A stretch of DNA of 64,000 nt from an uncultured bacterium (GTDB taxonomy: Bacteria; Bacillota_I; Bacilli_A; RF39; UBA660). The position numbers were made by a program, and so were the translations under genes. The DNA is taken from contig CASFPB010000039.1 of assembly GCA_949296605.1 (NCBI GenBank), forward strand, positions 7,766 to 71,765, in the 5' to 3' direction. Shown one piece after another: positions 143 to 32,802 of the stretch. The notes below the pieces were generated by a model. It made no database searches. It saw only the letters and a program-made list of their open reading frames with translations, and was not told the DNA's origin. Positions within the stretch are counted from its first letter, which is position 1. Every line of letters begins with the position of its first letter.

Positions 143-1003
143 ATGATTATTGCAGTAGTAGGCCCAACAGGTGTTGGAAAGACAAAAATGAGTATAGAAC
201 TTGCAAAAGAATATAATGCAGCAATTATTAATTGTGATGCAGTTCAAGTTTATAAATATTTAAATATTGGAAGTGCCAAAGTTTTAGAAAATGAAAAAGA
301 AGGCATAAAACATTATTTATTAGACATAAAAGATCCAGATGAAAATTATACAGTTAAAGATTATCAAAATGACGCACGTAATATTATAAAAAAAAATAAA
401 GATAAAAATTTAATATTTTGTGGTGGAACGGGTTTGTATTTATGTTCAGCTTTAATGGACTATCGTTTTTATGAAGATGAAAGCAATGAAAATTATGATA
501 ATTTAAATAATGAAGAACTTTATGATTTAGCTTTAAAAAAAGATAAAAATTGTAAAATTGATAAAAATAATAGAGTTAGATTAATAAGATTTTTAAATAA
601 AAAAAATATAGAAGTTGTTGAACCAAAATTACTATATGAAAATGTTTTATTTATAGGGCTAACAACTGATAGAAAAAATTTATATAAAATTATAAATACT
701 AGGGTTGATACAATGTTTAAAAATGGATTATTAGATGAAGTAAAAAAATTATATAAAAAGTATCCTAATTCCAGAGTATTAAAAAGTGCAATAGGTTATA
801 AAGAAGTAATTAAATATTTAAATAATGAAATTACTATGGAAGAAAGCGTAGAAGAAATAAAAAAAATAAGTAGACATTATGCTAAAAGACAATATACATG
901 GTTTAATAATAAGATGAAAATTAAATGGTTTAATGTAGATTATGATAATTTTGAAAATACTATATTAGATGTAAAAAAATACATAAATGATTGTATAAAA
1001 TAA
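143..1003 (+). CDS. miaA: tRNA dimethylallyltransferase
   Basis: P-loop GPTGVGKT at the N-terminus, QVYKYLNIGSAK, and C-terminal YAKRQYTWF. Length (286 aa) is typical of MiaA. Confidence 0.9.
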   Translation: MIIAVVGPTGVGKTKMSIELAKEYNAAIINCDAVQVYKYLNIGSAKVLENEKEGIKHYLLDIKDPDENYTVKDYQNDARNIIKKNKDKNLIFCGGTGLYLCSALMDYRFYEDESNENYDNLNNEELYDLALKKDKNCKIDKNNRVRLIRFLNKKNIEVVEPKLLYENVLFIGLTTDRKNLYKIINTRVDTMFKNGLLDEVKKLYKKYPNSRVLKSAIGYKEVIKYLNNEITMEESVEEIKKISRHYAKRQYTWFNNKMKIKWFNVDYDNFENTILDVKKYINDCIK

Positions 1004-1046
1004 ATGATTATGTTATATTTGTTTTTGAGGATAAATGGTGGTATAA

Positions 1047-2267
1047 ATGAACTTAAAAAAAAGAGGAATTATGTTTTTATGGATTAGTTTATTTGTTATA
1101 TTTACAAGTCTAGTTTTTTTAGTAATTGGATGCAATTCTAGTTATTTAATTTCTGATATAAATAAAAGAATTTCCTTAGGAGTAATGATTTTAGGTATTA
1201 TTTGGTTTATTTATTCGCTATTTCTAATTATTCGTTATAGATACAGAAAAAAATTTAAAAAAGTTAAAATGATAGTGTTTTCTTCATTAATTGGATTATA
1301 TATACTAGGTTGTTCAACATTTTTATTTATTTTATATGGCCCATATGATAATTTTAGAACATGGCTAATTACAACAGCAATGGCTACCATGAATCATCAA
1401 TACTATTGTAAATGGTTTTATAGTGATGATGTAATAAATGATGTATTAAATAGTAATTATGTAAAAGAAAGTGATGAATCAACCAATCCTAATTTAATAA
1501 CATTCGATAAAAATGGAAATTATAAAAATGAATATGAAAAAGAAATCTTAGAACATGATAAAGATGATTTATATAAAATAATAAAGTTTAAAGTTAATGG
1601 ATGCGATGCCTATCTTGCCGCAATATATGATCCTAGTAAAATAAGTGTTGGAATTAGTAAATGGTTAGGTAAAAGTGGTCAATATATTTATGATATGGCA
1701 AAAGAACAAGATGCAGTATTAGCTATAAATGGTGGAGGTTTTTTTGATCCTAATTATAATAGCAATGGTGCTAATCCACTTGGAATAACCATTTCTAGTG
1801 GGAAAATTATTTCTGATGCTGCTTATAATTCAAATAGTGGAGGAGTAATTGGTTTTGATGAAAATAATAAATTATTACTTTTAAGAAATATAACAGCTAA
1901 TGAAGCATTAGATATGGGAATTAGAGATGCAGTTACTATGGGACCTTTTTTAATAGTGAATGGTAAAACTGCTGATATAAAAGGCAATGGCGGCTGGGGT
2001 TATGCTGCTAGAACTGCAATAGGTCAAAGAAGTGATGGAATAGTTTTATTTTTAGTTGTTGATAGTAATGAATTTAGAACTAAAGGTGCATCAATGAAAG
2101 ATTTAGCAGAAATTATGGAAAATTATGGAGCAATAAATGCTGCAAATTTAGATGGTGGAACATCTAGCGCAATTGTAGAAAATGGAGAACTATTAAATGA
2201 TCCAATAGATTCAGCATTAAGACATAAAACAAGGGGAATACCAACAATATTTAAAGTAGTAAAATAA
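1047..2267 (+). CDS. Membrane-anchored phosphodiester glycosidase family protein (DUF2233/NAGPA-like)
   Basis: N-terminal TM segments. C-terminal domain has LAINGGGF, GPFLIVNGK, ARTAIGQRSDG and NLDGGTSS motifs typical of the family. Confidence 0.7.
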   Translation: MNLKKRGIMFLWISLFVIFTSLVFLVIGCNSSYLISDINKRISLGVMILGIIWFIYSLFLIIRYRYRKKFKKVKMIVFSSLIGLYILGCSTFLFILYGPYDNFRTWLITTAMATMNHQYYCKWFYSDDVINDVLNSNYVKESDESTNPNLITFDKNGNYKNEYEKEILEHDKDDLYKIIKFKVNGCDAYLAAIYDPSKISVGISKWLGKSGQYIYDMAKEQDAVLAINGGGFFDPNYNSNGANPLGITISSGKIISDAAYNSNSGGVIGFDENNKLLLLRNITANEALDMGIRDAVTMGPFLIVNGKTADIKGNGGWGYAARTAIGQRSDGIVLFLVVDSNEFRTKGASMKDLAEIMENYGAINAANLDGGTSSAIVENGELLNDPIDSALRHKTRGIPTIFKVVK

Positions 2268-2295
2268 AAAAATGGAGTAAAAATCCATTTTTTTA
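2266..2295. terminator. Bidirectional intrinsic terminator between convergent genes
   Basis: Stem aatgga(2271-2276)/tccatt(2284-2289) flanked by an A-run upstream and a T-run downstream. Confidence 0.55.
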
Positions 2296-3240
2296 ATTAA
2301 ATTCTAAGTAAAATAAAGGATTAAAATTATGTTCTTCAATAACTGTTTCTCCCTCATCAGCTTCTTTCATAGCTTCTGTTGTTACTAAAAAATATGTATG
2401 AAATAAATAATCTTTATTATCTTTACTTACGGGATCATCCCAAGTTAAATCAATATGAACCCATTGATTATCATAATATACAGCATTCCAAATATGTCCA
2501 GTTGATTTATATGATATTTCATTTGGTGTAGTTGCAATTTTATAATTATTAAATCCTAATTTAGATAAAAATATAGCCATTAAATCTGTATAACCATTAC
2601 AAGTTGCAAAACCTTCAAATAATGGTCCATATGCTGTATAAGAGTTAAAATCACTAACGTTTTCTTCATTTCTTTCGATATCATATTTAACATTATTAAT
2701 TATATAATCATGAATAACTTTAATTTTGTCATAATCATCCATATCATCAGTGATTAAATTATCAATTAATTCATCAACTTTATTATTTATTAATTTTATC
2801 TTATCCTTATCATATAAATAAAATATAGTTAAGTTTATTTCTCCATTTTCATTAATACTTGTTTTTATATTTGTAAAACTATTAAAAGGATGAACATAAT
2901 TATTTAAATGCGTTAATATAAGTTCATCTGAACTTATACTTGATGCATCAACTATACAATTACTATATTCATCAGGACAATAAAAAGTAAATTGATCCCA
3001 ACCATTGTCAATAACACTATAAAATATATTTAATAAATCTTGGTAAGAATAAGGTATATAATCTTGTGATTTTTGAACGTATAAATAATCTAAATCTTTT
3101 GTATAGACATTTTTATCATTAATTATAAGTTTAGGTTCTCCACTAATAAAAGTAGATATTTGATTAGTAATTGGTTCATTATAAATAATAGTTATAAAAA
3201 TGCATATTATGCAAATTACCGGAATTATAAGTTTTTTCAT
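2293..3240 (-). CDS. Transglutaminase-like cysteine protease domain protein with signal/TM anchor
   Basis: Motifs CNGYTDLMAIFLSKLG ... GHIWNAVYY ... VHIDLTWDDP give a Cys-His-Asp transglutaminase-core pattern. Likely start is MKKLIIP at 3240, not the track start 3267. Confidence 0.7.
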   Translation of the reverse strand: MKKLIIPVICIICIFITIIYNEPITNQISTFISGEPKLIINDKNVYTKDLDYLYVQKSQDYIPYSYQDLLNIFYSVIDNGWDQFTFYCPDEYSNCIVDASSISSDELILTHLNNYVHPFNSFTNIKTSINENGEINLTIFYLYDKDKIKLINNKVDELIDNLITDDMDDYDKIKVIHDYIINNVKYDIERNEENVSDFNSYTAYGPLFEGFATCNGYTDLMAIFLSKLGFNNYKIATTPNEISYKSTGHIWNAVYYDNQWVHIDLTWDDPVSKDNKDYLFHTYFLVTTEAMKEADEGETVIEEHNFNPLFYLEFN

Positions 3241-3289
3241 TGTATCACCATAGAATAATAATAGCAAAAAAAAATAAAGTAAACAATTG

Positions 3290-3553
3290 TTACTTCATAT
3301 TTTTTACTTTTTGTGTCAATCTTGATTTTTCTCTATCTGCAGTATTTTTCTTAATTAAACCTTTACTAACTGCTTTATCAGTATATTTTTGAATATCTTT
3401 AAGTAGTTTATCTGCTTCTTCTTTATTATCAGCAGCAATTGCTTTTTCGCAGTTCTTAATAAGGTTTTGAACACGCATTTTAAGTTCATGATTATTATCT
3501 GTTTTTTTAGCTATTACTTTTACAGCTTTTTTAGAACTTTTAATGTTTGGCAT
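3290..3553 (-). CDS. rpsT: 30S ribosomal protein S20
   Basis: MPNIKSSKKAVKV... is the typical S20 N-terminus. RBS ggaaggag lies 7 nt upstream of the ATG at 3553; the track start 3559 is a TTG inside the spacer. Confidence 0.9.
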   Translation of the reverse strand: MPNIKSSKKAVKVIAKKTDNNHELKMRVQNLIKNCEKAIAADNKEEADKLLKDIQKYTDKAVSKGLIKKNTADREKSRLTQKVKNMK

Positions 3554-3649
3554 AATCAAACTCCTTCCTCATTTCTTACTAATTTTAACAAATAAAAGCT
3601 GTTTTATCAAGTATTTTAGTTAATATATTATTGCATAACTATATATAAT

Positions 3650-4549
3650 TTAAAAATTAAACAATACTTCATCAATATCATAACTATCTTTCATAGATAA
3701 TGCTATTGAATATTTAACCTCTTCAAGCATTTCTTTATCATTAATATTAGCAATTAAATTATTATCAAACGAAAGAGAAATGCTATTTTCAAGTAGTTCA
3801 TAATTTGATAAATTAGTTGAAGCAGCAAGATAGCTAATTAAATTAGTATGATATATTGGTGTAGATTTTAACTCTTTAATTATAATTTCAGCTTTTTCTA
3901 TATTTTCATTAGAAACTTTTGTAACAGGTACGTAATAATAATAATCATTATACTTACTTAAATAATAAACTGTTGTTTTACTTGTATCTTTTATAGAATC
4001 AAAATTATAAACTTTGTTAACTCCATAATTTCTATCTAAATAAAGTGGCAATTTTTGATTAGAATTTGGCAATTTTGTTAATTGTTCTCCTTCAACAAAT
4101 ATACATATTTTTTTAACCTCTGGTAATTCTGTTAATGAATAAATTATTGCTTCAAGCATTTTTTCTTCATTATCATTACTTACATTTAATAATTCTTTAC
4201 TAAAATTAATAGTCAGTATTTCCTGTTCTAATTTCATATCTAAAATTTTAGTGTTACTTGGAATAATTGCTTTAAATCCTTCTCGAACATAACTAGATTT
4301 TTTACTATCAATTGTAAGAGATTCAATAATTTCTTTTATTAAATCATTTATATCATCACTTTCTTTGATTATAGAAGTTCTTGCGATATATTCCATGCTA
4401 TCTAATAAAAAGATTGGCATTTCATCCTTAGTAATATAAGATAAAGATTCTTTTATTGGGGTAGTTGTAGGAAAAAAATAAATAATTAACAAAATAAACA
4501 ATGCTAATGTAGCAATCATAATTCTTCTTAATGAAGCTCTTTTAATCAT
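3650..4549 (-). CDS. GerM-like (GerMN domain) sporulation/germination protein, membrane anchored
   Basis: N-terminal TM segment. LTINFSKELL...MLEAIIYSLTELPEVKKICIFVEGE resembles the GerMN domain. It sits next to gerE. Confidence 0.5.
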   Translation of the reverse strand: MIKRASLRRIMIATLALFILLIIYFFPTTTPIKESLSYITKDEMPIFLLDSMEYIARTSIIKESDDINDLIKEIIESLTIDSKKSSYVREGFKAIIPSNTKILDMKLEQEILTINFSKELLNVSNDNEEKMLEAIIYSLTELPEVKKICIFVEGEQLTKLPNSNQKLPLYLDRNYGVNKVYNFDSIKDTSKTTVYYLSKYNDYYYYVPVTKVSNENIEKAEIIIKELKSTPIYHTNLISYLAASTNLSNYELLENSISLSFDNNLIANINDKEMLEEVKYSIALSMKDSYDIDEVLFNF

Positions 4550-21317: not shown

Positions 21318-21404
21318 AATAAAAAAAGATAACTAAAAAGTAAATAACCGAAAAGTGTTCATTTGACTATATCTTGCATATATTTAATTAGGAAGGTGAT
21401 TTAC

Positions 21405-21941
21405 GTGTCTAGTTATAAAGAAATAGTTACAAAAGCAGTAATAGGTAAAGCTAAAAAGACCAGTAGCAATAAATTTTCTTTAACCCCAGAAGAAATTCCA
21501 AATACTGTTTTAGGTTGTTGGGTAATTAATCACAAATTTAATGGCAGTAAGAATGCTAAAGGAAGTGTTTTAGTTAATGGTTCATTTGATGTAAATGTTT
21601 GGTATTCATATGACTCTGATAAAAAGACTGCTGTAACAACTCAAACTTTTACTTATAGTGATGTTATGAATGTTCCACTTAAAGAAGATCGCAATATGCA
21701 AGATGCATCAGAAATAATTGTTAGATGCTTAAAACAACCCACAGTTTCCAATGTAAAAATAGAAAATAATGTTGTAAGCCTAGATGTCGAAAAAGAAATG
21801 GGTGTAGAAATTGTAGGGGATACAAAAGTGAAAGTTAGTGTGGAAGAAGACGAAGATGATTATGAAGAAATTTTTGATGAACAAGAACTTGATGAAATTA
21901 AAGACATAAACGAAAATTATTTAAATGAAGCATCCGAATGA
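21405..21941 (+). CDS. cotE: Spore coat morphogenetic protein CotE
   Basis: GTG at 21405 follows RBS ggaaggtga. SSYKEIVTKAVIGKAKK...GCWVINHKF...DVNVWYSY...VEIVGDTKVKV plus an acidic tail is colinear with B. subtilis CotE as I recall it. Confidence 0.8.
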   Translation: MSSYKEIVTKAVIGKAKKTSSNKFSLTPEEIPNTVLGCWVINHKFNGSKNAKGSVLVNGSFDVNVWYSYDSDKKTAVTTQTFTYSDVMNVPLKEDRNMQDASEIIVRCLKQPTVSNVKIENNVVSLDVEKEMGVEIVGDTKVKVSVEEDEDDYEEIFDEQELDEIKDINENYLNEASE

Positions 21942-21951
21942 TGCTTTTTTT
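21930..21951 (+). terminator. Intrinsic terminator after cotE
   Basis: Stem gcatc/gatgc (overlapping the stop codon) followed by a 7-T run. Confidence 0.5.
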
Positions 21952-21984
21952 AATAAAAATCAAACAAGAGTCAACATAAATTAG

Positions 21985-22013
21985 TTGACATACTAAATTT
22001 AATATAGTAATAT
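21985..22013 (+). promoter_or_regulatory. SigA-type promoter of rpsP-khpA
   Basis: Consensus TTGACA (21985-21990), 17-nt spacer, taatat (22008-22013). Confidence 0.65.
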
Positions 22014-22038
22014 GTTTATAGGAAGTGAGGAGAGAAAA

Positions 22039-22317
22039 ATGGCTGTAAAGTTAAGATTAAAAAGAATGGGAGCTAAACAAAAACCTTTTTATCGTATAGT
22101 TGCTGCTGATTCAAGAAGTCCAAGAGATGGAAGATTTATCGAAACTGTTGGAACTTATAATCCAATTGCAAAACCAGCAGAAATAAAAATTAACAAAGAA
22201 GTTGCTTTAAAATGGTTAAATAATGGTGCACAACCAACTGATACAGTAAAAGCAATATTTAAAAACGAAGGTATAATGAAAGAATTTGCTGATTCAAAAG
22301 TAAAAAAAGGTAACTAA
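22039..22317 (+). CDS. rpsP: 30S ribosomal protein S16
   Basis: [38 protein letters not shown] gtgaggag lies upstream. The track start 22012 lies inside the promoter -10. Confidence 0.92.
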
Positions 22318-22319
22318 AT

Positions 22320-22565
22320 ATGAATGTAGTAGAATACACAGAATTTTTAGTGAAAGAATTAGTAAAAGATCCTGAATCTATTAAAGTAGAATGCTTTGAA
22401 TCTGATGAAGATACAAAAATAATTGAAATAATAGTTTCTGAAAATGATATGAAAAATATCATAGGTAAAAATGGAAAAAATGCATCAGCATTAAGAACAA
22501 TAATTCAAGCCTTTGCTTATGTAAAAGGAATGAAAAAATTAAAAATTAACATCGATTCATATTAA
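22320..22565 (+). CDS. khpA: KH-domain RNA-binding protein (YlqC/KhpA)
   Basis: 81-aa protein with the KH motif IIGKNGKNASALRTI. Conserved position directly after rpsP. Confidence 0.8.
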   Translation: MNVVEYTEFLVKELVKDPESIKVECFESDEDTKIIEIIVSENDMKNIIGKNGKNASALRTIIQAFAYVKGMKKLKINIDSY

Positions 22566-22584
22566 ATGCTTAAAAGCATTTTTT
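22564..22584 (+). terminator. Intrinsic terminator closing the rpsP-khpA operon
   Basis: Stem aaatgct(22564-22570)/agcattt(22575-22581), loop taaa, then a T-run. Confidence 0.7.
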
Positions 22585-22610
22585 ATTTTGCCCAAAAGTA
22601 AAGGTTAATA

Positions 22611-22639
22611 TTTAAAAAGATTTCTTATTGTGTTAAAAT
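22611..22639 (+). promoter_or_regulatory. Candidate extended -10 promoter for the giant-repeat operon
   Basis: tttaaa (22611-22616), 17-nt spacer, tgtgt-taaaat (TRTGn + TAAAAT, 22634-22639). It lies 35 nt upstream of the ATG at 22674. Confidence 0.35.
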
Positions 22640-22673
22640 AATAACCATTGACTTATTGTGAAAGGAATATAAA

Positions 22674-25600
22674 ATGGAACAAATATTTTGGGATAACTTC
22701 AAAAATACAGATAAATTATTAATTTTAGATTATGTAGGTAGGCTGCCACTGATATACCAAAAAGCATTACAGGATTGCTATGGTGAAGATTATAATGAAT
22801 TATTAAAAAAGGGAGTTAAACTTATTGATGCCAAAAAAGCTATAAAAAAAATTAATTATTTAATTAATAATCCTAATTATTATGTGCGTGCAACAAATTA
22901 TAATTCAGCTAAAAATTTAAATGGAGAAATAACAGTAAGTGGTGGTAAGCAAAAAGAAGTATATTTAAAAGAAAAAATAAATTGTGATGAAAGCATTTTA
23001 AAAAGAATATCAATAATTTTTAGATTAAATCCAGAATTTAAAATTTTGTATAAATATTTCGGTATAAATTTAGACAAAAGTATTGATGAATTTGAATTGC
23101 CAAGAGAAGATTATGAAACATTAAAAAAACTTTATAAGAATCTTAATGATTTTATAAGTAATAAATCAATTTTAATAAGAAACATTTTAGGTTTAACATA
23201 TAGTGAATTTGTATCTTATTTTGAAAAAGAATTAACGACAAATCCAAAATTAAAAAAATTAAAAAAGCTATGTAAAAAGACCATAATTACTGAGCCTATA
23301 AACTTATTGGATATAGATGATAAAACATTTTTAAGTATAATTAAATGTATTTATTGTTTAAAACCAAATATATTAGTGAATCAAATACTTGCAAATAATA
23401 AATTTAATATTACGTTACAAGAGTTCTTAGATGCAAATGAAAAAGAAATGGATTTTATATTATCCAAAAATGAAAATACTGATGTAGGTAACACTTTAAA
23501 AAATTTATGGCAAGACGATTACACAAAATTATGTATTGATAAAAATAATGATTCTATAAACGAATTAGTAACGATATTAAATGTTCTAATTAATGATTTA
23601 TTTTCATATAGATATTTAATTAAAGTTAAAACATTACAAGAAATATTGGAAGCAACAGAAGAAGAAATAGATTTTTTAAAAAATAATTTATCAAAAGAAA
23701 CATCTTCATATAAAATTATTTCAAAAGTATTTGGAAGTAACTTTAGAGGAACAAATGAGTTAAGATATATGTTGCATGGCAAAGATAATGAAGCATATCA
23801 TAATGCATTATTAAATTTGAAATTAAAACTAAGTAATTATAGAAATGGAAAATCTAGAAAATTTAAAACATTACAAGAATTATTAGGGGCATCAGAAGAA
23901 GAAATAGATTTTTTAAAAAAATATATTAATGATAATTATGAAAAATTTGCTATTATTATTAAAGTCTTTGGGAAAGAATTAAATGGGACAAATGAATTTT
24001 ATAAATATTTAAGCGCCGAAGAAAAAGTAGCATATTCTGAAAAAATTCATATTTTAAGAATAAATTTACAAAAGTTTAGAACAGGAAAATTACATGAATA
24101 TAAAAAATTAAAAGATATATTAAATGTATCAGAAGAAGAAATAGAACACATAAAAAAATACTATCCTAAAACAACAAAAGGCTATCAAATTTTATTAAAA
24201 GTATTTGGAGAAAATTTGGATAATGATGACTCATTATACTGTAATTTATTAGACAAAGAAAAAAATTTATATCGATATACATTGCAAGCTTTAAATATGT
24301 TTTTAAAAGATGGCATTAAAAAATATAAAACTTTACAAGAAATACTTGAAGCAACAGAAGAAGAAATGGAATTTTTAAAACAAAAATATCCTAAAAATAC
24401 AAAAAATTATATTTTGCTTATAAAAGTATTTGGAAATAATTTTGAAAATTCAAATTATAATTATGACAAACTAAATGGGGACGAAAAGAAAAAATACAGA
24501 AGTGCTTTAAAATCAATAAGGAAATTTTTAGAAAAACATAGAAAAAATTTAATAAAAAATGGTAAAACATTAGCCGAAATAATAAAAATATCACCAGAAG
24601 AAATTGAATATATAAAACAACAATATCCTAAAAATACAAAAAACTATAAAATTATAGTTAAGGTATTTGGCATAGAATTAAAGGACACAAATAAAAAATT
24701 AAATTATTTAACCAACGAAGAAAGAAAAACCTACTATAACGCTCTAAATTGCTTAAAAAGATTTATTAAAAGAAGTGAAACAAAGTGTAAACCTAAAACT
24801 TTACAAGAGTTATTAAATGCAACAGAAAAAGAAATAGATTTTTTAAATAAAAAAATATCTAAAAAAACAAAGACTTATACTATATTATCAAAAGTATTTG
24901 GTAATGATTTTAAAAAAACAAATGAATGTTATGATAGTTTAACAACACTAGAAAAAAGAACTTTTTCACAGACAATAATAAGATTAAAAAGCCTTTTAGA
25001 AAAATACAGAGAAACAAAGAAATTTGATTTTAAAACACTTTCCCAAATATTAGGCGCGACAAAAGAAGAAATAGAATTTTTGATGGATGAAACAGATAAA
25101 AGTTCAAAAATTTACAAAGTGATTTTAAAAGTATTTGGAGAGGATTTTGAAGGAACTAACGAAAAGAAGTTTTTATTAAATAATGAAGAAAAAAAGACAT
25201 ATAATAATGCAATATCATCATTAAAAGCTAGATTAAAAAATTATAGGAAAAATAAAAATATTAAATATAAAACTTTACAAGAAATACTTGAAGCAACAGA
25301 AGAAGAAATAGACTTTTTAAGTGAAATTACTCCTAAAAAAACTAAAAATTATGTTGTTCTTGTTAAAGTTTTTGGAGAAAGTTTTAAAGGAACAAATGAA
25401 CTATGTGAACAACTAACTGATGAAGAGAAGGTAACTTATTTTGCAGCAATAAAATCATTATCAGTAAGGCTAAAAAAATATCGTGACAATGGAAAAGATT
25501 ATAAAACCTTGCAAGAAATACTAAATGCAACAGATGAAGAAATAGAATATCTAAATGAAATTTATCCACAAAATACAAGAAGTTATCAATTTTTGGTAAG

Positions 25601-26081
25601 TATGTTTGGAATTGATTTTAGAAATATAGGAAATTTGAATAAATTATCTAGTGAAGCAAATATGTTGTTAAATGATACGATAGCAATATTACAAACATAT
25701 TTATGTATGCAAAGAGAAAATACGAAAGATGGAAATTTACAACAAATCGAAACAGAAGGCCCTGTTGAAATTTTAACAAGTAAAGAATATACAACGGTGG
25801 AAACACCATTTAAACATCCATTTTTTAAAGAATTTTTAATATTACTACCTATTGAATATCAATATATTACAGCATTAAGATTAGGTTTAGTATATGATGA
25901 AAAAATTCATTCCATTGAAGAATTAGCGGAAATATTTAATATTGATATTGAAACCGCAAGAAAAAGATGTTTAAAAGGAATAAACATATTTATATTAATA
26001 ATTGAAAAATATAAAGAATTGTATAATCAAAACATCCCCAATATTGATGCGCTAATAGAAAACATAAAATTAGTTTTATAG
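22674..26081 (+). CDS. Giant helical-repeat protein (1135 aa), sigma-less paralog: FW-x-NF linker module, degenerate repeats, 9 clear ~75-79 aa repeats, C-terminal sigma-region-4-like HTH
   Basis: Uninterrupted 3.4-kb ORF with RBS aaagga. The repeat consensus is KTLQEILxATEEEIxFLK..Y.IL.KVFG..F..TN.....L..EEK..Y..A...L...L..YR. The C-terminus reads TPFKHPFFKEFLILLPIEYQYITALRLGLVYDEKIHSIEELAEIFNIDIETARKRCLKGI. Confidence 0.85.
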   Translation: MEQIFWDNFKNTDKLLILDYVGRLPLIYQKALQDCYGEDYNELLKKGVKLIDAKKAIKKINYLINNPNYYVRATNYNSAKNLNGEITVSGGKQKEVYLKEKINCDESILKRISIIFRLNPEFKILYKYFGINLDKSIDEFELPREDYETLKKLYKNLNDFISNKSILIRNILGLTYSEFVSYFEKELTTNPKLKKLKKLCKKTIITEPINLLDIDDKTFLSIIKCIYCLKPNILVNQILANNKFNITLQEFLDANEKEMDFILSKNENTDVGNTLKNLWQDDYTKLCIDKNNDSINELVTILNVLINDLFSYRYLIKVKTLQEILEATEEEIDFLKNNLSKETSSYKIISKVFGSNFRGTNELRYMLHGKDNEAYHNALLNLKLKLSNYRNGKSRKFKTLQELLGASEEEIDFLKKYINDNYEKFAIIIKVFGKELNGTNEFYKYLSAEEKVAYSEKIHILRINLQKFRTGKLHEYKKLKDILNVSEEEIEHIKKYYPKTTKGYQILLKVFGENLDNDDSLYCNLLDKEKNLYRYTLQALNMFLKDGIKKYKTLQEILEATEEEMEFLKQKYPKNTKNYILLIKVFGNNFENSNYNYDKLNGDEKKKYRSALKSIRKFLEKHRKNLIKNGKTLAEIIKISPEEIEYIKQQYPKNTKNYKIIVKVFGIELKDTNKKLNYLTNEERKTYYNALNCLKRFIKRSETKCKPKTLQELLNATEKEIDFLNKKISKKTKTYTILSKVFGNDFKKTNECYDSLTTLEKRTFSQTIIRLKSLLEKYRETKKFDFKTLSQILGATKEEIEFLMDETDKSSKIYKVILKVFGEDFEGTNEKKFLLNNEEKKTYNNAISSLKARLKNYRKNKNIKYKTLQEILEATEEEIDFLSEITPKKTKNYVVLVKVFGESFKGTNELCEQLTDEEKVTYFAAIKSLSVRLKKYRDNGKDYKTLQEILNATDEEIEYLNEIYPQNTRSYQFLVSMFGIDFRNIGNLNKLSSEANMLLNDTIAILQTYLCMQRENTKDGNLQQIETEGPVEILTSKEYTTVETPFKHPFFKEFLILLPIEYQYITALRLGLVYDEKIHSIEELAEIFNIDIETARKRCLKGINIFILIIEKYKELYNQNIPNIDALIENIKLVL
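23628..25740 (+). repeat. Nine in-frame tandem coding repeats, period 225-237 nt
   Basis: Unit starts (K-T-L codons) fall at 23628, 23865, 24102, 24327, 24564, 24795, 25032, 25269 and 25503. A 47-nt perfect direct repeat occurs at 24321-24367 and 25263-25309. Confidence 0.9.
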
Positions 26082-26093
26082 AAAGGAGGATAA

Positions 26094-29000
26094 ATGAAAA
26101 ATAGTATTTTATTATATCAGCTTATGCAAGAATATGGTTTTTATAATAAATCAAGTGAATTTTATATTGAAATTATAAAAAAATATGAAATAAATGGCGA
26201 AGTTAATAGACAAGACATAATAAAAATTAGAGAAAGTATATTAAAAAAAATAAAAGGGGATATAAAGAATTTAAATATTGATTGGCTTATAAAGTTGTTC
26301 TTAAAAGTTAAAACGTTAAGTGATTTATCAAAGTTATTAAATTTATTAAATAAATATAATATAGTTTTAGATTTTAGTTTAATTGAAAATTTAATAAATA
26401 ATAATTCGCAAGTTGATGCTTTAATATTTAACTTTTTAAAAAAAGGAAAAAATATAACAATTTCATATATAGATAGAATTAGTGATAATGAGTTAGTAAC
26501 TGAACTTTTAATTGCCTATGCAACTATAAAAAATATCTTAACAAATGAATCAGAAAAAGAAGCAAACGAATATTATGAAGATGAAACTAAAAATTCTAAA
26601 ATTGATGATTCAATAGGCATGTATTTAAAAGAAATAGGTAGCATACCATTATTATCAAAAGAAGAAGAACTTGAATTATTTAAAAAGATAGAAATGGGCA
26701 GTAAACAAGCAAAAGATAGAGTAATTGAAGCAAATTTACGTCTAGCAGCTTCTATTGCCAAAAAATATTTGAACAAAGGTTTAGGGCTACAAGACCTTAT
26801 TCAAGAAGGAAATATAGGGATTATGAAGGCAGTAGAAAGGTTTGATTATAAGAAGGGATACAAATTTTCTACTTACGCAACTTGGTGGATTAGACAAACT
26901 ATTACAAGGGCAATAAGTGAACAATCTAGAACAATTAGAGTGCCAGTTCATATGAGTGAAGATATAAAAAACTTACATATAGCTAAAAATAATTTATCAA
27001 TTAAGCTAAATAGAGAACCAACTATTGAGGAAATTGCAGAAGTATTAAACATGACTTCAGATAAAGTATTAGAAATAATTAGATTTGACACAGAAACATC
27101 AACAGCATCATTAAATGCTACAGTTGGTGATGAAGATGATTCAGAGCTAGGGAATTTCATTGAAGATACTTTTTTTGAATCGCCAACAAAAACATTTGAA
27201 CAAAAAGATTTAAGTATTAGATTAAATGAAATGCTTAATGAGTTAAAAGATAGAGAAAAATCGGTTATAATGTATAGATTTGGTTTAATAAATGGAAAAC
27301 CTTATACACTTGAGGAAATAGGTATAATATTTAATGTTACAAGAGAAAGAATAAGGCAAATAGAAGCAAAGGCATTAAGAAAATTAGGTAACCCTGTAAG
27401 AGCTAAAAAAATAAAAGATTATTATGAATTTGAAGATGTTGATTGCAGAATATCAAAAGGATTTTGGAATAATTTTGCACATTATACAAAAGATATTGTT
27501 TTTTTAATAATTGATAATGATCTTGAAGAAAATTTAAAAAATGCACTATATGGAGTTTTCGGAAAAGATTTATCAAAAGTAAAAATTAAAAATTCAAGTG
27601 AAACAACAAAAGCAATAGAAGCAATTGAAGCAATTAAAACAATTTTAAAAACAAAAGATCAAAGTCAATACGAAATAACTTTACAAGAATATTTAAAAGC
27701 AACCGATGAAGAATATGAAAATTTAAAAAAGATTATTATATGTTCTTCTTACTGTGAAATATTATCAGAATTATTTGGTAGTAATTTTGATCAACCAAAA
27801 TCAGGTATAATAGCATCGCCAAGTAATGAGGCAACTTATTATAATATTGCATTTTGTTATTTAAAAAATTGTTTAAATAAACGATGCGAAGTTCTACCTG
27901 AATTTAGATTAGGAACGCTACAGGAGATACTTAATGCAAGCAAAGAAGAAATAAAATATTTAAAAGATAGCGTATTAAGTAAAACGGCTAACCGTTCTAT
28001 AATAATAAAAGTTTTTGGAAATAACTTAGATCAAATAAATTCAGGTTATTATGAATTAGAATATAGTGAAAAAAATAAATATTTTAAATCTATTTCGTAT
28101 TTAAAAAAAGAATTAACTAATTACAGAAAATTAAATTCAAGTAATAATATAACTTTGCAAGAAATACTAAATGCAACTGATGAAGAAATGTTATTTATAA
28201 AATGTAAAATTATAAATGATTCTTATTTTCAAATAATATTAAGAGTTTTTGGAAATGAATTAAATCAAACAAATAAAAGCTTTAATGAATTAAGCGAAGA
28301 AGAAAAAATAGAATATAATAAATGTATAAGAAGTTTAAAAGACAAAATACGAGGATTTAGAGTATTTAACAATAATAGAAGAAATTTGCAAAAGTATTTA
28401 AACGCATCTGATGAAGAAATGGTTTATTTAAATCAAACGTATATAGCTTCAGCAAAATTAAAAAATATTATCTATGGAATATATGGTGAAAATTTAAACG
28501 AATTTAACGTTTATTTTTACGCTAGCTTATCTGATAAAGAGTTATTTAATTATAGTTCATTTATAACAAATTTGCAAAAAAAATTAGAAAAACATCGCCA
28601 TGAGCAAAAAGATTGTAAAACTATTCAAGAACTTTTAGAACTATCAAATGAAGAATTAGAATTAATTAGACTTTATTATATAAATAAATCAGATAGATAC
28701 CAAATATTAATAGAAGTATTCGGAGAAAATTTAGACCAAACAAATAAAATAGTTTGTTCATTTAATAATCATAAAAATCAAACCTATAATAACGCTTTAA
28801 ATGATTTAAGAAAAACAATAAAAACGCATAGAGAAATAGTAGGCGTTGGAAAAACTATTTTTGAAATTTTAAATATGTCAATTGACGAATTTAATTTGAT
28901 TAAACAAAACTTTTCACAAAATTTTGCAAATTTTAATGTTTTAATAAAAGTATTTGGGGATAATTTTGATAAAACCGATGAAAACTATCATAATTTATCA

Positions 29001-29699
29001 ATTGAAGAAAAAGTAGAATATATTAAAGCATTAGAAGAGTTTACTAATTGTTTGATATCTGTTAGAACATACAAAACTAAACATCAAACATTACAAGAAA
29101 TACTGGGAGCTACAGAAGAAGAAATAGCATTTATAAAAGATAATTATCCACAAAATACAAAAAATTATGATATTTTAGTCAAAGTCTTTGGCATAGATTT
29201 CACAAATAATAATTATAATCTAACTGAATTAAATGATTTTGAGAAAGGTCAATACTACCGAGCAATAAATTGTTTAAGAAAATATTTAAAAAATTATAGG
29301 AAAGGTAAAAATAAATTACCTAAAAAAGAAGAGTCAAAATTACCAAATGATACTACTAAAATAGATAAACAAGATGACATAGAATATTTGGATGCATTAC
29401 CTGATATAAATTTAAATGAAATTAAAACACCTTTTACGCATCCATATTTTCAAGAATTTATTAATATTTTACCAGAAGAGTATCGTATTATAACTGCTAA
29501 AAGAATGGGATTAAGTGATGGTTGCATCCATTCTTTAACAAGCCTAGCAAAAGAATTTAAAATAAGTCCAAAAGAAGCTTATGATAAATGCGAAAATGGT
29601 ATAGCATTATTTATATTTATAGTTAAAACATACCAAACCACATTTAATAAAGAATTACCAATTTTAGATTTAGATATGTTATTAAAACGTCTTATATAA
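26094..29699 (+). CDS. Giant sigma-70 fusion protein (1201 aa): novel N-domain + complete SigA/RpoD-like regions 1.2-4.2 + 7 helical repeats + second, C-terminal sigma-region-4-like HTH
   Basis: Strong RBS aaaggagga, 12 nt after the upstream stop. The sigma core (nt ~26604-27427) has [77 protein letters not shown] and [28 protein letters not shown]. It is then followed by ~760 further aa. Confidence 0.88.
27675..29320 (+). repeat. Seven in-frame tandem coding repeats, period 231-237 nt
   Basis: The T(L/I)Q-E-I-L codon anchors fall at 27678, 27915, 28152, 28383, 28620, 28854 and 29088. The unit is the same as in 22674..26081. Confidence 0.85.
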
Positions 29700-29702
29700 A
29701 AA

Positions 29703-30395
29703 TTAAATATTTTTGTTTTTAATAAATTCAGTGAGCATTTTAGTAAGTGCTCTTTTTTCAATTCTAGAAACATAACTTCTAGATATTTTTAACTCTTTTG
29801 CTATTTCTTTTTGCGTCATTTCCTTAGTATTAAATAATCCATATCTTTTAACTATAATTTCTTTTTCTCTATCATTTAAAAGATTTAGATATTTATTTAA
29901 TAAATTAATATTGTTTTTAATTTCAAGTTGGTCAAATAAATCTTTATCCTTATCTTTTATTACATCTATTAAGCTTATTTCATTTCCATCTTTATCATAC
30001 CCAATAGCATCATTTAAACTAACAGTAACATTAACATGTTTATTAGCTCTAAAATGCATTAATAATTCATTTTGAATACATCTAGCAGCATAAGTAGTAA
30101 TTTTTGTTTTTTTATCATTATTATATGTATCAATTCCTTTAATAAGACCAATAGTTCCAATACTTATTAAATCATCAGTATCAACATCTTTGGTATCAAA
30201 CTTTTTAACTATATGTGCAACCAAACGTAAATTGTGCTCAATAAGTTTATTGCGAGAATTCTTATCTCCATTTAACATATCATTTATACATTTTTCTTCT
30301 TCTATAGCATTAAGTGGTTCAGGAAAAACATTATTAGAATAGCTTCCTGTAAAAAATAACATATCTTTAATAATATTAAACAAATTAAATAACAT
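29703..30395 (-). CDS. sigK: Sporulation sigma factor K precursor (pro-sigma-K), uninterrupted
   Basis: YSNNVFPEPLNAIEEEKCI..GDKNSRNKLIEHNLRLVAHIVKKF..DDLISIGTIGLIKGIDTY..TYAARCIQNELLMHFR matches SigK rather than SigE (HNLRLVAHIVKKF). It carries a ~20-aa hydrophobic pro-sequence. The ATG at 30395 follows RBS agaggtg; the track start 30401 is a GTG inside the RBS. Confidence 0.85.
   Translation of the reverse strand: MLFNLFNIIKDMLFFTGSYSNNVFPEPLNAIEEEKCINDMLNGDKNSRNKLIEHNLRLVAHIVKKFDTKDVDTDDLISIGTIGLIKGIDTYNNDKKTKITTYAARCIQNELLMHFRANKHVNVTVSLNDAIGYDKDGNEISLIDVIKDKDKDLFDQLEIKNNINLLNKYLNLLNDREKEIIVKRYGLFNTKEMTQKEIAKELKISRSYVSRIEKRALTKMLTEFIKNKNI
29733..29758 (+). terminator. Plus-strand intrinsic terminator for the giant-repeat operon, embedded in the 3' coding end of sigK (opposite strand)
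   Basis: Stem gagca(t)(29733-29738)/(g)tgctc(29747-29752) followed by a 6-T run (29753-29758). Confidence 0.5.
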
Positions 30396-30474: not shown

Positions 30475-32802
30475 ATGGATATAAGTGTGATTGTAGAAAA
30501 ATTAAGTGAAGAATTTTCTTTTTACAATAAACCATACGAATATTATTTTAAAATATGTAATGAAATATTATGTGATGATGCAAATTTAATGTATAAATTT
30601 TGTTATGAAAAAGTAGTTTTAGATATAAAAAACGATTGGAAAAGTTTAAAAATTGGTTGGTTTATTGCAATATTTAAAGAAAATTTAAATGGAATGTTAG
30701 AAATATTAACTAAATTTGGATTAGTGATAGATAATACTAATTTTAAGCAAATTATAAAAAAATATCCTGATTTTGAAAATGTTTTAAGTGATTTAGTAGA
30801 AAATGATGCTTACTTAGATGAAAATGAAACATTAAAAAAACTAATTAAATTATACTTAAGTTATACAGAAAGCAAAATGAAAAATAAACAAGATAAGGAT
30901 ATATTATTGTGGGAAGAACAATTAGAAATATTTAAGATTTTAAAAGAATTAAGTAAAGAACCAGAAAAAAATAAAACTTTCATAGCTTATTATTATGATT
31001 TACTAGTAGAGCAATATAAAAATTTTGTTCGATCCCTAATACCAAAATATGAACAAGAAAAAGTAGAATATGATGATTTAGTTCAAGAAGGATTCATTGG
31101 ATTAATTAATGCAATTAGAAATTTTGATTATACAAAGGGTTATAAATTTTCATCATATGCTTATGTTGTTATAAAAAACGTTATTAGGAAATACATAAAT
31201 AAAAACATTAGATCAATAAGAATTCCTGATTCAATGTTAAACGATTATTTTAGAATAATATATACTCAAAGAGATTATTATATGTTAAATGGAAAAGAAG
31301 CAAGCGAAGAAAAACTATCAGAAATGTTAGGTATGTCAATAGAAAAAATTAGAAATGTTTTAATGTGCTGTGAAGATACAATATCATTATATGATTCTTT
31401 GGGTAGGGGACCAGAAGAAGCAGAATATACTTTATTATGTGCAATAAAAAATGAATCGTCCCCATTACCAGATGAAATATATGAAAGAAAACAAATAAAT
31501 TTGATGATAGAAGAATTGTTTAGTGTTTTAACAGGCATTCAAAGAAAAGTAATTGAACAATATTTTGGATTTTATAATCAAAAACCTAAATCAATTCAAA
31601 ATATAGCAGATGAACTTGGTTGTTCAAGAGAAAATATAGATCAAATAAGAAGTAATGCATTAAAACGAATGAGAAAACACCTAGCTGATAAAAAGAATAA
31701 TGATTTAAATACCTTTAGTAAATTTTCGTTAAATACAAATTATTTTTGGTATAACTTTATAGGCTTTAAAAAGTCAGATGTATTAGAAGCTATAAACGAA
31801 CTTGTAAATGAAAAAAAATTAAGTGAATTAGAGCAAAAATCCTTAATTGATAGATTTGGTAAAAAATATAATTTATTAAATAAAGTAGATGAAGAAACAA
31901 TAAAAGTTGTTAGTGTATCTATAGAAAAGATAAAAGAAAAACTTCTTGAAATACGAAAACGAAAATCGATGTTAAAAACAAAGATTGAAATAGGTAGTTT
32001 AATGGATATTTTAGATGCAACGATTGATGAAATAAAATATCTTAGATCAACTAGGAAAAAAGATAGTAAAAGCATAAATTTACTTACTAGATTATTTAAT
32101 GATGATTTTTTAAGAGAAGGATTAATACCAGTTTATTTAAGTAAAACTGAATTAAGAACTTATTATTCTGCTATAAGTGCATTAAGAGAATCATTAAAAC
32201 TTTATAGAAAAAAAGAAGAAACTAAAAGATATTACTTTGGCTTAACATTAAAACAAATATTAAATATAACTACTGAAGAAATTGAATTTTTAAAAAGAAC
32301 AATTAATCCTAAATCTGCTTATTATTCAGTATTAACTAAATGTTTTGGAACTTCATTAGAAGAAGAAAATAAAAATGAAAAATTGGATGAAAAAGAATTA
32401 AAATTATTAAAAATTGCTATAAGCAAAATGGAAGTATTAATTTTTTATTATAGAGAAGAAGAAACTAAAAGACTATTAAAAATCTATAGCTATTTTAACA
32501 TGCCTGAAGAAACTAATGAAAAAGTTGTTACACCATTTAGCAACCCAAGATTTAAATTGTTTATTCAATGCTTACCTGATGAGCTACAAATTATAACAGC
32601 GATGAGAATCGGAGCTGATAATGGCGTTATTAAATCGATATTTGAAATTGCAATGTATTTAAATGAAGATGAAGAAGAAGTAAGAAGAAAATGTGAAATA
32701 GGAATAAATTTGTTTAAAACGTTAGTAAGTGAATATAAAAATGAGTATGAAAATGATTTTGAAACATTTTTAATACAAAGTAGAAAAAAATACGGTAAAT
32801 AA
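30475..32802 (+). CDS. Giant divergent sigma-70 fusion protein (775 aa): N-domain paralogous to 26094 gene + divergent sigma regions 2-4 + FW-x-NF linker + 2 repeats + C-terminal sigma-region-4-like HTH
   Basis: RBS ggggga upstream. Region 2 reads DDLVQEGFIGLINAIRNFDYTKGYKFSSYAYVVIKNVIRKYI, where the Trp dyad is replaced by VV. Region 4 reads LTGIQRKVIEQYFGFYNQKPKSIQNIADELGCSRENIDQIRSNALKRMRKHL. The C-terminus reads TPFSNPRFKLFIQCLPDELQIITAMRIGADNGVIKSIFEIAMYL. Confidence 0.85.
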   Translation: MDISVIVEKLSEEFSFYNKPYEYYFKICNEILCDDANLMYKFCYEKVVLDIKNDWKSLKIGWFIAIFKENLNGMLEILTKFGLVIDNTNFKQIIKKYPDFENVLSDLVENDAYLDENETLKKLIKLYLSYTESKMKNKQDKDILLWEEQLEIFKILKELSKEPEKNKTFIAYYYDLLVEQYKNFVRSLIPKYEQEKVEYDDLVQEGFIGLINAIRNFDYTKGYKFSSYAYVVIKNVIRKYINKNIRSIRIPDSMLNDYFRIIYTQRDYYMLNGKEASEEKLSEMLGMSIEKIRNVLMCCEDTISLYDSLGRGPEEAEYTLLCAIKNESSPLPDEIYERKQINLMIEELFSVLTGIQRKVIEQYFGFYNQKPKSIQNIADELGCSRENIDQIRSNALKRMRKHLADKKNNDLNTFSKFSLNTNYFWYNFIGFKKSDVLEAINELVNEKKLSELEQKSLIDRFGKKYNLLNKVDEETIKVVSVSIEKIKEKLLEIRKRKSMLKTKIEIGSLMDILDATIDEIKYLRSTRKKDSKSINLLTRLFNDDFLREGLIPVYLSKTELRTYYSAISALRESLKLYRKKEETKRYYFGLTLKQILNITTEEIEFLKRTINPKSAYYSVLTKCFGTSLEEENKNEKLDEKELKLLKIAISKMEVLIFYYREEETKRLLKIYSYFNMPEETNEKVVTPFSNPRFKLFIQCLPDELQIITAMRIGADNGVIKSIFEIAMYLNEDEEEVRRKCEIGINLFKTLVSEYKNEYENDFETFLIQSRKKYGK
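31996..32480 (+). repeat. Two in-frame copies of the helical repeat unit (period ~249 nt)
   Basis: SLMDILDATIDEIKYLRS...LLTRLFNDDF... and TLKQILNITTEEIEFLKR...VLTKCFGTSL... Confidence 0.7.

Follow-up and report, generated by a model that had tools for sequence, protein, structure and literature searches.

The window analysed here is a stretch of 64,000 nucleotides (nt) from an uncultured bacterium of the UBA660 lineage of Bacilli (GenBank assembly GCA_949296605.1, contig CASFPB010000039.1, positions 7,766 to 71,765), with a GC content of 23.5%. It holds three related open reading frames (ORFs), designated A, B and C, of which A is the main subject of this work. B and C code for sigma70-type factors continued by a long C-terminal tail, in which an array of repeats is followed by a second domain resembling sigma region 4. 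The product of A consists of such a tail alone, and the analysis presented here suggests that it is a functional, free-standing version of the module which is tethered to a sigma factor in the other two proteins.

ORF A codes for a tail without a sigma factor

The product of ORF A begins with MEQIFWDNFKNTDK; the coordinates of its parts are listed in Table 1 together with the other features of the locus. Neither Pfam nor NCBIfam detects a sigma domain, or anything else above threshold, in A. This includes sigma region 2 (PF04542), the region of core binding and -10 recognition, which is not present in A according to either database. A phmmer search with the sigma domain of B did not match A or its strain variants either. 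A therefore belongs to a truncated subclass lacking both the sigma regions 1.2-4 and the N-terminal domain of about 155 amino acids (aa) which precedes them in B and C.

A reading of the locus made earlier from the DNA sequence alone (the sequence-only reading) had described A as a free-standing extension module and had considered a frameshifted sigma fragment upstream of it unlikely. Both statements hold: the tail of A is complete, no sigma part was found, and a six-frame translation of positions 21900-22760 contained no sigma fragment when compared with the hidden Markov models (HMMs) of regions 2, 3 and 4, all scores being 4.3 bits or lower. A TGA codon in frame with A (22659-22661) is located 5 codons upstream of its start. 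The same reading had placed a terminator and a promoter in front of A. Matches to both are indeed located in the 108-nt gap upstream of A, but only as weak consensus matches. The hairpin followed by a U-run is below the threshold of the terminator scan and is suggestive at most. Promoter-like matches are not enriched in this 23% GC region compared to shuffled sequences (82 found, 92.7 expected), so the promoter-like site provides no evidence of function.

In B, Pfam identifies sigma70 regions 1.2, 2, 3 and 4 (aa 172-431), and in C regions 2-4 (aa 177-401). The best matches of both proteins in Pfam and NCBIfam are the RpoD/SigA models and not the ones specific for extracytoplasmic function (ECF) sigma factors. 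The recognition motifs of regions 2.4 and 4.2 are intact in B and match those of SigA. The N-terminal domain takes the place of region 1.1 in B (26094-26588), C (30475-30880) and 22 other sigma-tail proteins, including those of L003-L008 and L013 (related loci and contigs are referred to by L numbers and individual related proteins by P numbers). It carries an FxFYNK motif near its start and has no match in Pfam. Co-occurring with the tail, this domain is a candidate intramolecular partner for it.

Table 1. Features of the sigma-tail locus (positions in the window).
Feature	Position	Strand	Basis or remark
Weak terminator-like hairpin and U-run, after the KH-domain gene	22567..22592	+	-5.7 kcal/mol, z -1.5, 2 G-C pairs
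Promoter-like site TTTAAA, 17 nt, TG-n-TAAAAT	22611..22639	+	consensus match
Ribosome-binding site AAAGGA of ORF A, 7 nt upstream of ATG	22661..22666	+	read from sequence
ORF A, sigma-less tail protein, 1135 aa	22674..26081	+	ORF call
Unit 0 of A (FW unit, aa 1-77), first tail repeat	22674..22904	+	family profile, E 1.8e-7
Unit 1 of A (aa 94-171), VYLKEKxNC...ILYKYFGxNL...ELPxEDYE	22953..23186	+	family profile, E 1.9e-7
Two degenerate units of A (aa 172-318)	23187..23627	+	partial/weak profile match at aa 244-315
Nine canonical repeats of A, about 78 aa each (aa 319-1021)	23628..25736	+	repeat HMM, E 1e-27 to 1e-36
Acidic linker of A, predicted to be disordered (about aa 1022-1040)	25737..25793	+	AlphaFold2 pLDDT <50, model residues 156-175
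Sigma-region-4-like terminal domain of A (aa 1041-1135)	25794..26078	+	hhalign 99.1%, E 7e-19
Ribosome-binding site AAAGGAGG of ORF B, inside the 12-nt A-B spacer	26082..26089	+	
ORF B: N-terminal domain, SigA-like sigma (aa 172-445), 8 units, second region-4-like domain	26094..29699	+	
Sigma gene convergent with B, 232 aa	29703..30401	-	Pfam domains, conserved synteny
ORF C: N-terminal domain, divergent sigma, 3 units, second region-4-like domain	30475..32802	+	

The tail begins immediately after the canonical sigma factor

B can be aligned end to end with Bacillus subtilis SigA (7CKQ_F residues 93-371, E 1e-90). The alignment runs to the C-terminal residue of SigA, opposite aa 445 of B, which marks the end of the canonical sigma factor. 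The FWxNF motif occurs once in each paralog, at aa 5 of A, aa 457 of B and aa 424 of C. Starting from A aa 1-80, a profile iterated over the family members converged on the general repeat family and placed a full unit at A 1-77 (with the E value given in Table 1), B 453-529 (E 7.8e-8) and C 420-503 (E 6.4e-8). All three of these first units begin at profile position 3, so residue 1 of A is equivalent to B 453 and C 420, and the onset of the tail lies 7-8 residues after the end of the canonical sigma factor. The FW motif itself corresponds to the first short helix of the first unit and is the counterpart of TLQEIL in the canonical units. The sequence-only reading, according to which A starts exactly at a motif found directly after region 4.2 in B and C, is thus borne out by the profile comparison of the three post-sigma regions, in which the first units of A, B and C superpose.

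The repeat array is the largest in A

A was originally credited with the largest array of repeats, and the counts agree: there are nine canonical repeats in A, seven in B and two in C. With the first unit following the sigma part taken into account, B has 8 units and C has 3, while A contains about 13. The repeat consensus is KTLQEIL.AT.EEI.FL...Y.IL.KVFG...L...EK..Y..AI..L. The array had also been described as opening with about 300 aa of degenerate repeats, which is true of the weak stretch aa 172-318 but not of units 0 and 1, both significant and conserved. These N-terminal units correspond colinearly to conserved units that follow the sigma part in relatives (blastp E 1e-10 to 1e-19), and unit 1 is colinear with the sigma-tail proteins of L003, L004, L005 and L007 as well as with a 461-aa protein of L013. 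As for the weak stretch, aa 172-243 probably form a unit too, counted as such by pattern and spacing only.

The repeats of A were modelled by AlphaFold2 with a predicted local distance difference test score (pLDDT) of 88-96 as five helices each, a short, a medium, a medium and a short one followed by a helix of 23-27 residues. Confidence dips between the repeats, which the models present as separate domains. Helix 2 of each repeat is acidic and contains an invariant glutamate. The repeat region of A has a net charge of +27 and an isoelectric point (pI) of 9.2, compared to a net charge of -7 for the whole tail of B. The segment of A connecting the array to the terminal domain (aa 1022-1045) has a net charge of -4.

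No match to the repeat exists in Pfam or NCBIfam, and the family repeat profile found none among the PDB sequences. Foldseek with the model of one repeat (pLDDT 88) returned no match in PDB (best E 6.6) and none in BFVD. Going by these models, the repeat appears to be a novel five-helix fold for which no sequence or structural relative was found. Two candidate relationships were considered and rejected. The repeat is not a diverged sigma region 2, 3 or 4 (hhalign probability of 6% at most); a distant member, P0066, does weakly match positions 1-21 of Sigma70_r4, and this is not seen across the family. Nor is it a helix-hairpin-helix (HhH or (HhH)2) domain: HHH_2 gave a sub-threshold match only (E 0.048, 14.3 bits with a cut-off of 27), and the Foldseek search was empty.

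The terminal domain is related to sigma region 4

The C-terminal helix-turn-helix (HTH) that the sequence-only reading had noticed in all three proteins is present, and it is homologous to sigma region 4. The alignment of the terminal-domain family with region 4 covers 68 columns (hhalign, Table 1). A terminal-domain profile built from 29 sequences matches the region 4 chains of SigA/RpoD in PDB (best E 2.7e-4). The top Foldseek matches of a model including the terminal domain are sigma factors only, all of them weak (E at least 0.04); the domain itself is modelled with a pLDDT of about 80-90 (AlphaFold2). It is preceded by a characteristic lead-in (TPFKHPFFKEF...LP.EY..IT.LRLGL.DG) and has a conserved C-terminal helix as well. 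ORF A matches the family-wide terminal-domain HMM with E 1.2e-33, and P0001, a 95%-identical strain variant of A, matches the HMM built from A, B and C of the window with E 1e-43.

In the hhalign register, TRERIRQIE of region 4 of B stands opposite SPKEAYDKC in its own terminal domain and, in a column-by-column reading of the domain alignment, opposite DIETARKRC in A. The positions contacting the -35 element (R584, E585, R586, R588 and Q589 of Escherichia coli sigma70) can be followed in this alignment: those of R584, R586 and R588 are acidic or variable in the terminal-domain family consensus. The conserved -35-contact residues of region 4.2 were not found in the terminal domain of A. Within the domain, conservation is lowest in the recognition helix. 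We therefore read the terminal domain as one that is derived from sigma region 4 and is not a reader of the -35 element. Since the -35-contact arginines are lost and the pI of the domain is 5.2-8.0, it seems more likely to bind protein.

An 848-aa sigma-tail protein of L006 (9673-12219) contains two tandem terminal domains (aa 661-737 and 765-843).

Gene order and neighbouring genes

The start of B follows the end of A after a 12-nt spacer, and the terminator scan found no terminator-like site between the two genes. The only plus-strand terminator-like hairpin past B is located at 29733-29752, approximately 35 nt after its stop codon, within the 3' end of the convergent sigma gene. The product of the latter is presumably SigK/SigE-like, as judged from its N-terminal sequence compared to that of SigK. 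The cotE gene for an outer spore coat protein (21363-21941) is located two genes upstream of A, the genes in between being rpsP and the KH-domain gene. CotE together with the SigK/SigE-like gene suggests that the organism, a member of a small and very AT-rich lineage of uncultured Bacilli, is a spore former. An 87-aa ORF antisense to A (23519-23782, minus strand) is probably spurious.

In the relatives, the locus consists of rpsP, the KH-domain gene, variable genes, the SigK-like gene on the minus strand, one to three sigma-tail genes, polA and fpg. The SigK-like gene is located between B and C in the window and upstream of all sigma-tail genes in L004-L007 and L013, which points to a local rearrangement that may have split an ancestral A-B-C run here. 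L013 (23% GC) represents a second species, its PolA being 80% identical to that of the window. Here the SigK-like gene (minus strand) is followed by the genes for a sigma-less protein of 461 aa and, after 28 nt, a B-like fusion of 808 aa, then by those for a C-like fusion of 807 aa and for PolA. The sigma-less protein begins with MRVKLFWEYF. As the trio is found in the same order in L013, the A-B-C order predates the split of the two species. The view that A is the first gene of an operon shared with the SigA-like fusion is supported by the short spacer with its ribosome-binding site AAAGGAGG, by the missing terminator and by the like order in L013.

The tail defines a family in uncultured gut Bacilli

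We searched 1.84 billion proteins clustered at 50% identity by HMMER with the repeat profile (E of 1e-3 or lower) and found 79 tail-family clusters. About 35 proteins, approximately half, have the complete arrangement of the 155-aa N-terminal domain, sigma70, repeats and terminal domain according to local domain parsing. The remaining forms are truncated and contain either region 4 only, followed by repeats and the terminal domain, or just the latter two. Examples of the region-4-only type, with 3-5 repeats, are a 696-aa protein of L004 (12089-14179) and a 498-aa protein of L009 (5810-7306), the latter encoded directly after a 1078-aa sigma-less member. A itself has both traits of the tail family, at least two repeat units and a terminal domain with its lead-in.

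The family was reached only by this exhaustive HMMER search. In word-indexed searches, full-length A retrieved nothing but variants from the same species, the repeat profile one fragment and the alignment of sigma-less proteins five proteins. None of the family clusters examined has been given a name, and the literature searched contained no description of the tail family, or of a sigma factor with a C-terminal repeat array of about 750 aa and a second region 4. L002, which is 97% identical to the window, comes from a metagenome-assembled genome (MAG) of an uncultured member of Bacilli. The other relatives found by genome scan belong to MAGs of uncultured Bacilli and to Candidatus Onthocola stercoravium. 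The tail can thus be considered a lineage-specific domain family, which we could not find described, of a putative sigma70 subfamily in uncultured gut Bacilli.

Origin of ORF A

The sequence-only reading regarded A as a copy of a tail. This is correct insofar as A contains the whole module; it is not simply the tail of B or C, however, but is closer to the tails of relatives. A aa 17-266 are colinear with the segment following region 4 in the sigma-tail proteins of L005, L004, L003 and L007 (blastp E 1e-10 to 1e-19), and no blastp match of this part to B or C was found. In its terminal domain, A shares 55-56% identity with the main sigma-tail proteins of L004-L007, compared to 40% with B and 37% with C. 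The sigma domain of B is closest to the one in the 1137-aa protein of L006 (53%), and the terminal domain of this same protein is nearer to that of A than to that of B.

Since both ends of A are nearer to the tails of relatives than to B or C, the most likely explanation of A is a duplicate that was truncated at its 5' end and has kept an ancestral tail. According to this scenario, a sigma-tail gene would have been duplicated, and one copy would have lost its 5' part coding for the N-terminal domain and sigma regions 1.2-4. The region-4-only proteins may represent intermediates between the full fusions and the sigma-less forms.

Selection and variation

The ratio of nonsynonymous to synonymous substitution rates (dN/dS), computed between three strains, is 0.09-0.10 for polA, 0.18 for the sigma part of B, 0.23-0.31 for the tail of B and 0.24-0.37 for the ends of A. 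All of them are under purifying selection, with weaker constraint on the sigma-tail genes than on polA. The cluster of A at 90% identity has 50 members, and most of the full-length ones among those listed are 1135 aa long. A is syntenic in three assemblies of the species, and independent assemblies agree on its length and start. Besides, a frame of 3.4 kb would be unlikely to last by chance in 23.5% GC DNA without selection. Judged by these comparisons, A is a real and functional gene under purifying selection.

Variation within A is unevenly distributed. The inner repeats (23628-25502) are only 58-65% identical in the best-matching pairs when compared with the L001 allele (761-4372), whereas identity is 92-97% in the N-terminal region, in the last repeat and in the terminal domain. 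With 1203 aa and 10 canonical units, the L001 allele is longer than that of the window (1135 aa and 9 units); the order of the units is rearranged, four of those in L001 resemble repeat 3 of the window, and the reading frame is kept. B shows no such contrast between inner and flanking parts among strains.

Between genomes, the sigma-tail proteins are 34-42% identical compared to 72-87% for PolA, Fpg and the SigK-like protein (window versus L004-L007 and L013), and one to three copies of their genes are present at this fixed locus. Such fast divergence of B-type proteins relative to their neighbours argues against B being the sole, ordinary housekeeping sigma factor.

Possible function of A and alternative explanations

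Our tentative proposal, to which we would give somewhat less than an even chance, is that A modulates the sigma-tail holoenzymes by acting in trans on the partner to which the tethered tails bind. A would be co-transcribed with the SigA-like fusion B and would engage, through its conserved ends, whatever partner the tethered tails bind. RNA polymerase (e.g., its beta flap), the N-terminal domain of the family or another tail are candidates for this role. By competing with the tethered tails or by joining them, A may then modulate the sigma-tail holoenzymes, and the variable middle repeats may act as a spacer or a multivalent platform. The features bearing on this mechanism are the conserved ends and variable middle of the module, the origin of the terminal domain from region 4 together with its loss of the DNA-contact residues, the tight coupling of A and B in two species and the co-occurrence of the N-terminal domain with the tail.

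Several observations weigh against this proposal. Sigma-less members are found without a full sigma-tail gene on contigs of 4.7-16 kb (L009, L010 and L014); those of L009 and L010 adjoin a Y-family polymerase gene, and that of L014 adjoins other genes. Operon coupling is therefore not universal, and action in trans on a co-encoded fusion cannot be a general rule. The terminal domain of A is only 37-40% identical to those of C and B, which means that the three tails may not share one partner and weakens the idea of simple competition. The moderately basic repeat region (+27, pI 9.2) would also fit non-specific DNA binding, and searches of PDB, BFVD and the PDB sequences gave no relative of the repeat from which an activity could be guessed.

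The basic charge of the repeats, the homology of the terminal HTH to sigma region 4 and the sigma-less members of other lineages that have no full sigma gene on the available contigs would all suit an autonomous DNA-binding protein, either an architectural one or a transcription factor (e.g., a repressor or nucleoid-associated protein), acting independently of the fusions. We consider this unlikely: conservation of the terminal domain is lowest in its recognition helix, where the basic -35-contact residues are missing, the domain is acidic to neutral, the whole tail of B is negatively charged (-7), helix 2 of the repeat is acidic with its invariant glutamate, and the position of A beside B, kept in two species, favours coupling. 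Rapid turnover could be accounted for in another way, by genetic conflict shaping the family, in which case the second region 4 and the free or region-4-only forms would be decoys for, or sensors of, phage factors directed against region 4. The low identity of sigma-tail proteins (34-42% versus 72-87% for PolA, Fpg and the SigK-like protein), the paralog number of 1 to 3 with recurrent truncations and the divergence of the inner repeats of A between strains (58-65% with flanks at 92-97%) agree with such a role. Nevertheless, it seems quite improbable, as the locus occupies a fixed chromosomal site amid housekeeping genes, no genes for defence or mobility were seen in its vicinity, and dN/dS within the species is below 0.4, indicating purifying and not positive selection. 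Moreover, PADLOC and PHROGs gave no match for the tail and no defence model matched A, the matches of the MzaA model being confined to the ordinary sigma70 domain of B and C.

Even less credible is the explanation of A as a non-functional remnant, i.e., a decaying truncated duplicate or an artefact of assembly or annotation of a split sigma gene. The whole sigma part is missing, units 2-3 are degenerate, and gene birth and death are frequent in the family. However, the 3.4-kb frame is open in DNA of 23.5% GC with a dN/dS of 0.24-0.37, length and start are alike in independent assemblies, and the array varies in frame (1135 versus 1203 aa). The L013 counterpart has the same start motif and position, and no sigma fragment lies upstream of A. 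A remnant is thus very improbable.

Returning to the proposed action in trans, the three proteins can be combined into a broader picture, which we find doubtful as a whole. In uncultured low-GC gut Bacilli, A, B and C may together add a new level to the control of transcription. Here SigA-like factors would carry a long arm with a docking domain derived from region 4 that binds RNA polymerase or their own N-terminal domain, the sigma-less A would compete in trans, and the length and sequence of the array would be a fast-evolving determinant of specificity or dosage. If this is true, the arm could auto-inhibit the sigma factor, bridge two polymerases or reach upstream partners. It would constitute a built-in regulator derived from sigma itself, without a described counterpart.

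Comparison with known systems and significance

Compared to SigA-type sigma70 (B. subtilis SigA, 7CKQ chain F), B matches regions 1.2-4.2 and the terminal domain of A is homologous to region 4. The differences are that SigA ends where the tail begins, that A has no regions 1.2, 2 and 3, and that its region-4-like domain lacks the -35-contact residues.

ECF41, ECF42 and ECF56-type sigma factors have a C-terminal extension (SnoaL-like or TPR) that modulates their own activity (PMC3426412, PMC7730460). As precedents for a sigma factor with a regulatory tail they come closest, but they consist of a minimal sigma2-sigma4 with extensions of unrelated folds, whereas B is SigA-like with its own N-terminal domain of about 155 aa. 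Pfam finds neither SnoaL nor TPR domains in A, B and C. To our knowledge, no repeat array, second region 4 or free copy of the extension encoded alongside is present in these ECF groups.

UPF0122/YlxM proteins (1XSV, 1S7O) and HTH proteins of the GerE/LuxR type are stand-alone proteins based on a region-4-type HTH, and the terminal-domain profile weakly matches 1XSV and 1S7O (E 0.005-0.055). UPF0122/YlxM is a single domain of about 110 aa, in contrast to the domain of A, which follows about 1040 aa of repeats and has the TPFKHPFFKEF lead-in and a C-terminal helix in addition. The resemblance to Rsd, T4 AsiA and anti-sigma factors, which act in trans on region 4 or its docking site, is a hypothetical functional analogy only: A has no sequence or fold similarity to them, and no anti-sigma domain was found in it by Pfam or NCBIfam. 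As far as its sequence goes, the sigma-less A can be placed as a new variant among sigma factors and the modules accessory to them, taken as one broad class.

Few bacterial proteins have been studied as thoroughly as sigma factors. A SigA-like sigma whose arm of about 750 aa is apparently built from a new repeat fold and ends in a second region-4-like domain is absent from Pfam and NCBIfam. The new domain family would be useful for annotating uncultured gut Bacilli. The sigma-less A indicates that selection acts on the arm as an autonomous module, and the arm seems to have been repeatedly cut loose in evolution, giving rise to full sigma, region-4-only and sigma-less forms. These forms may serve as a natural experiment on the binding partner of the arm and provide constructs for studying whether a domain derived from region 4 can regulate a holoenzyme in trans.

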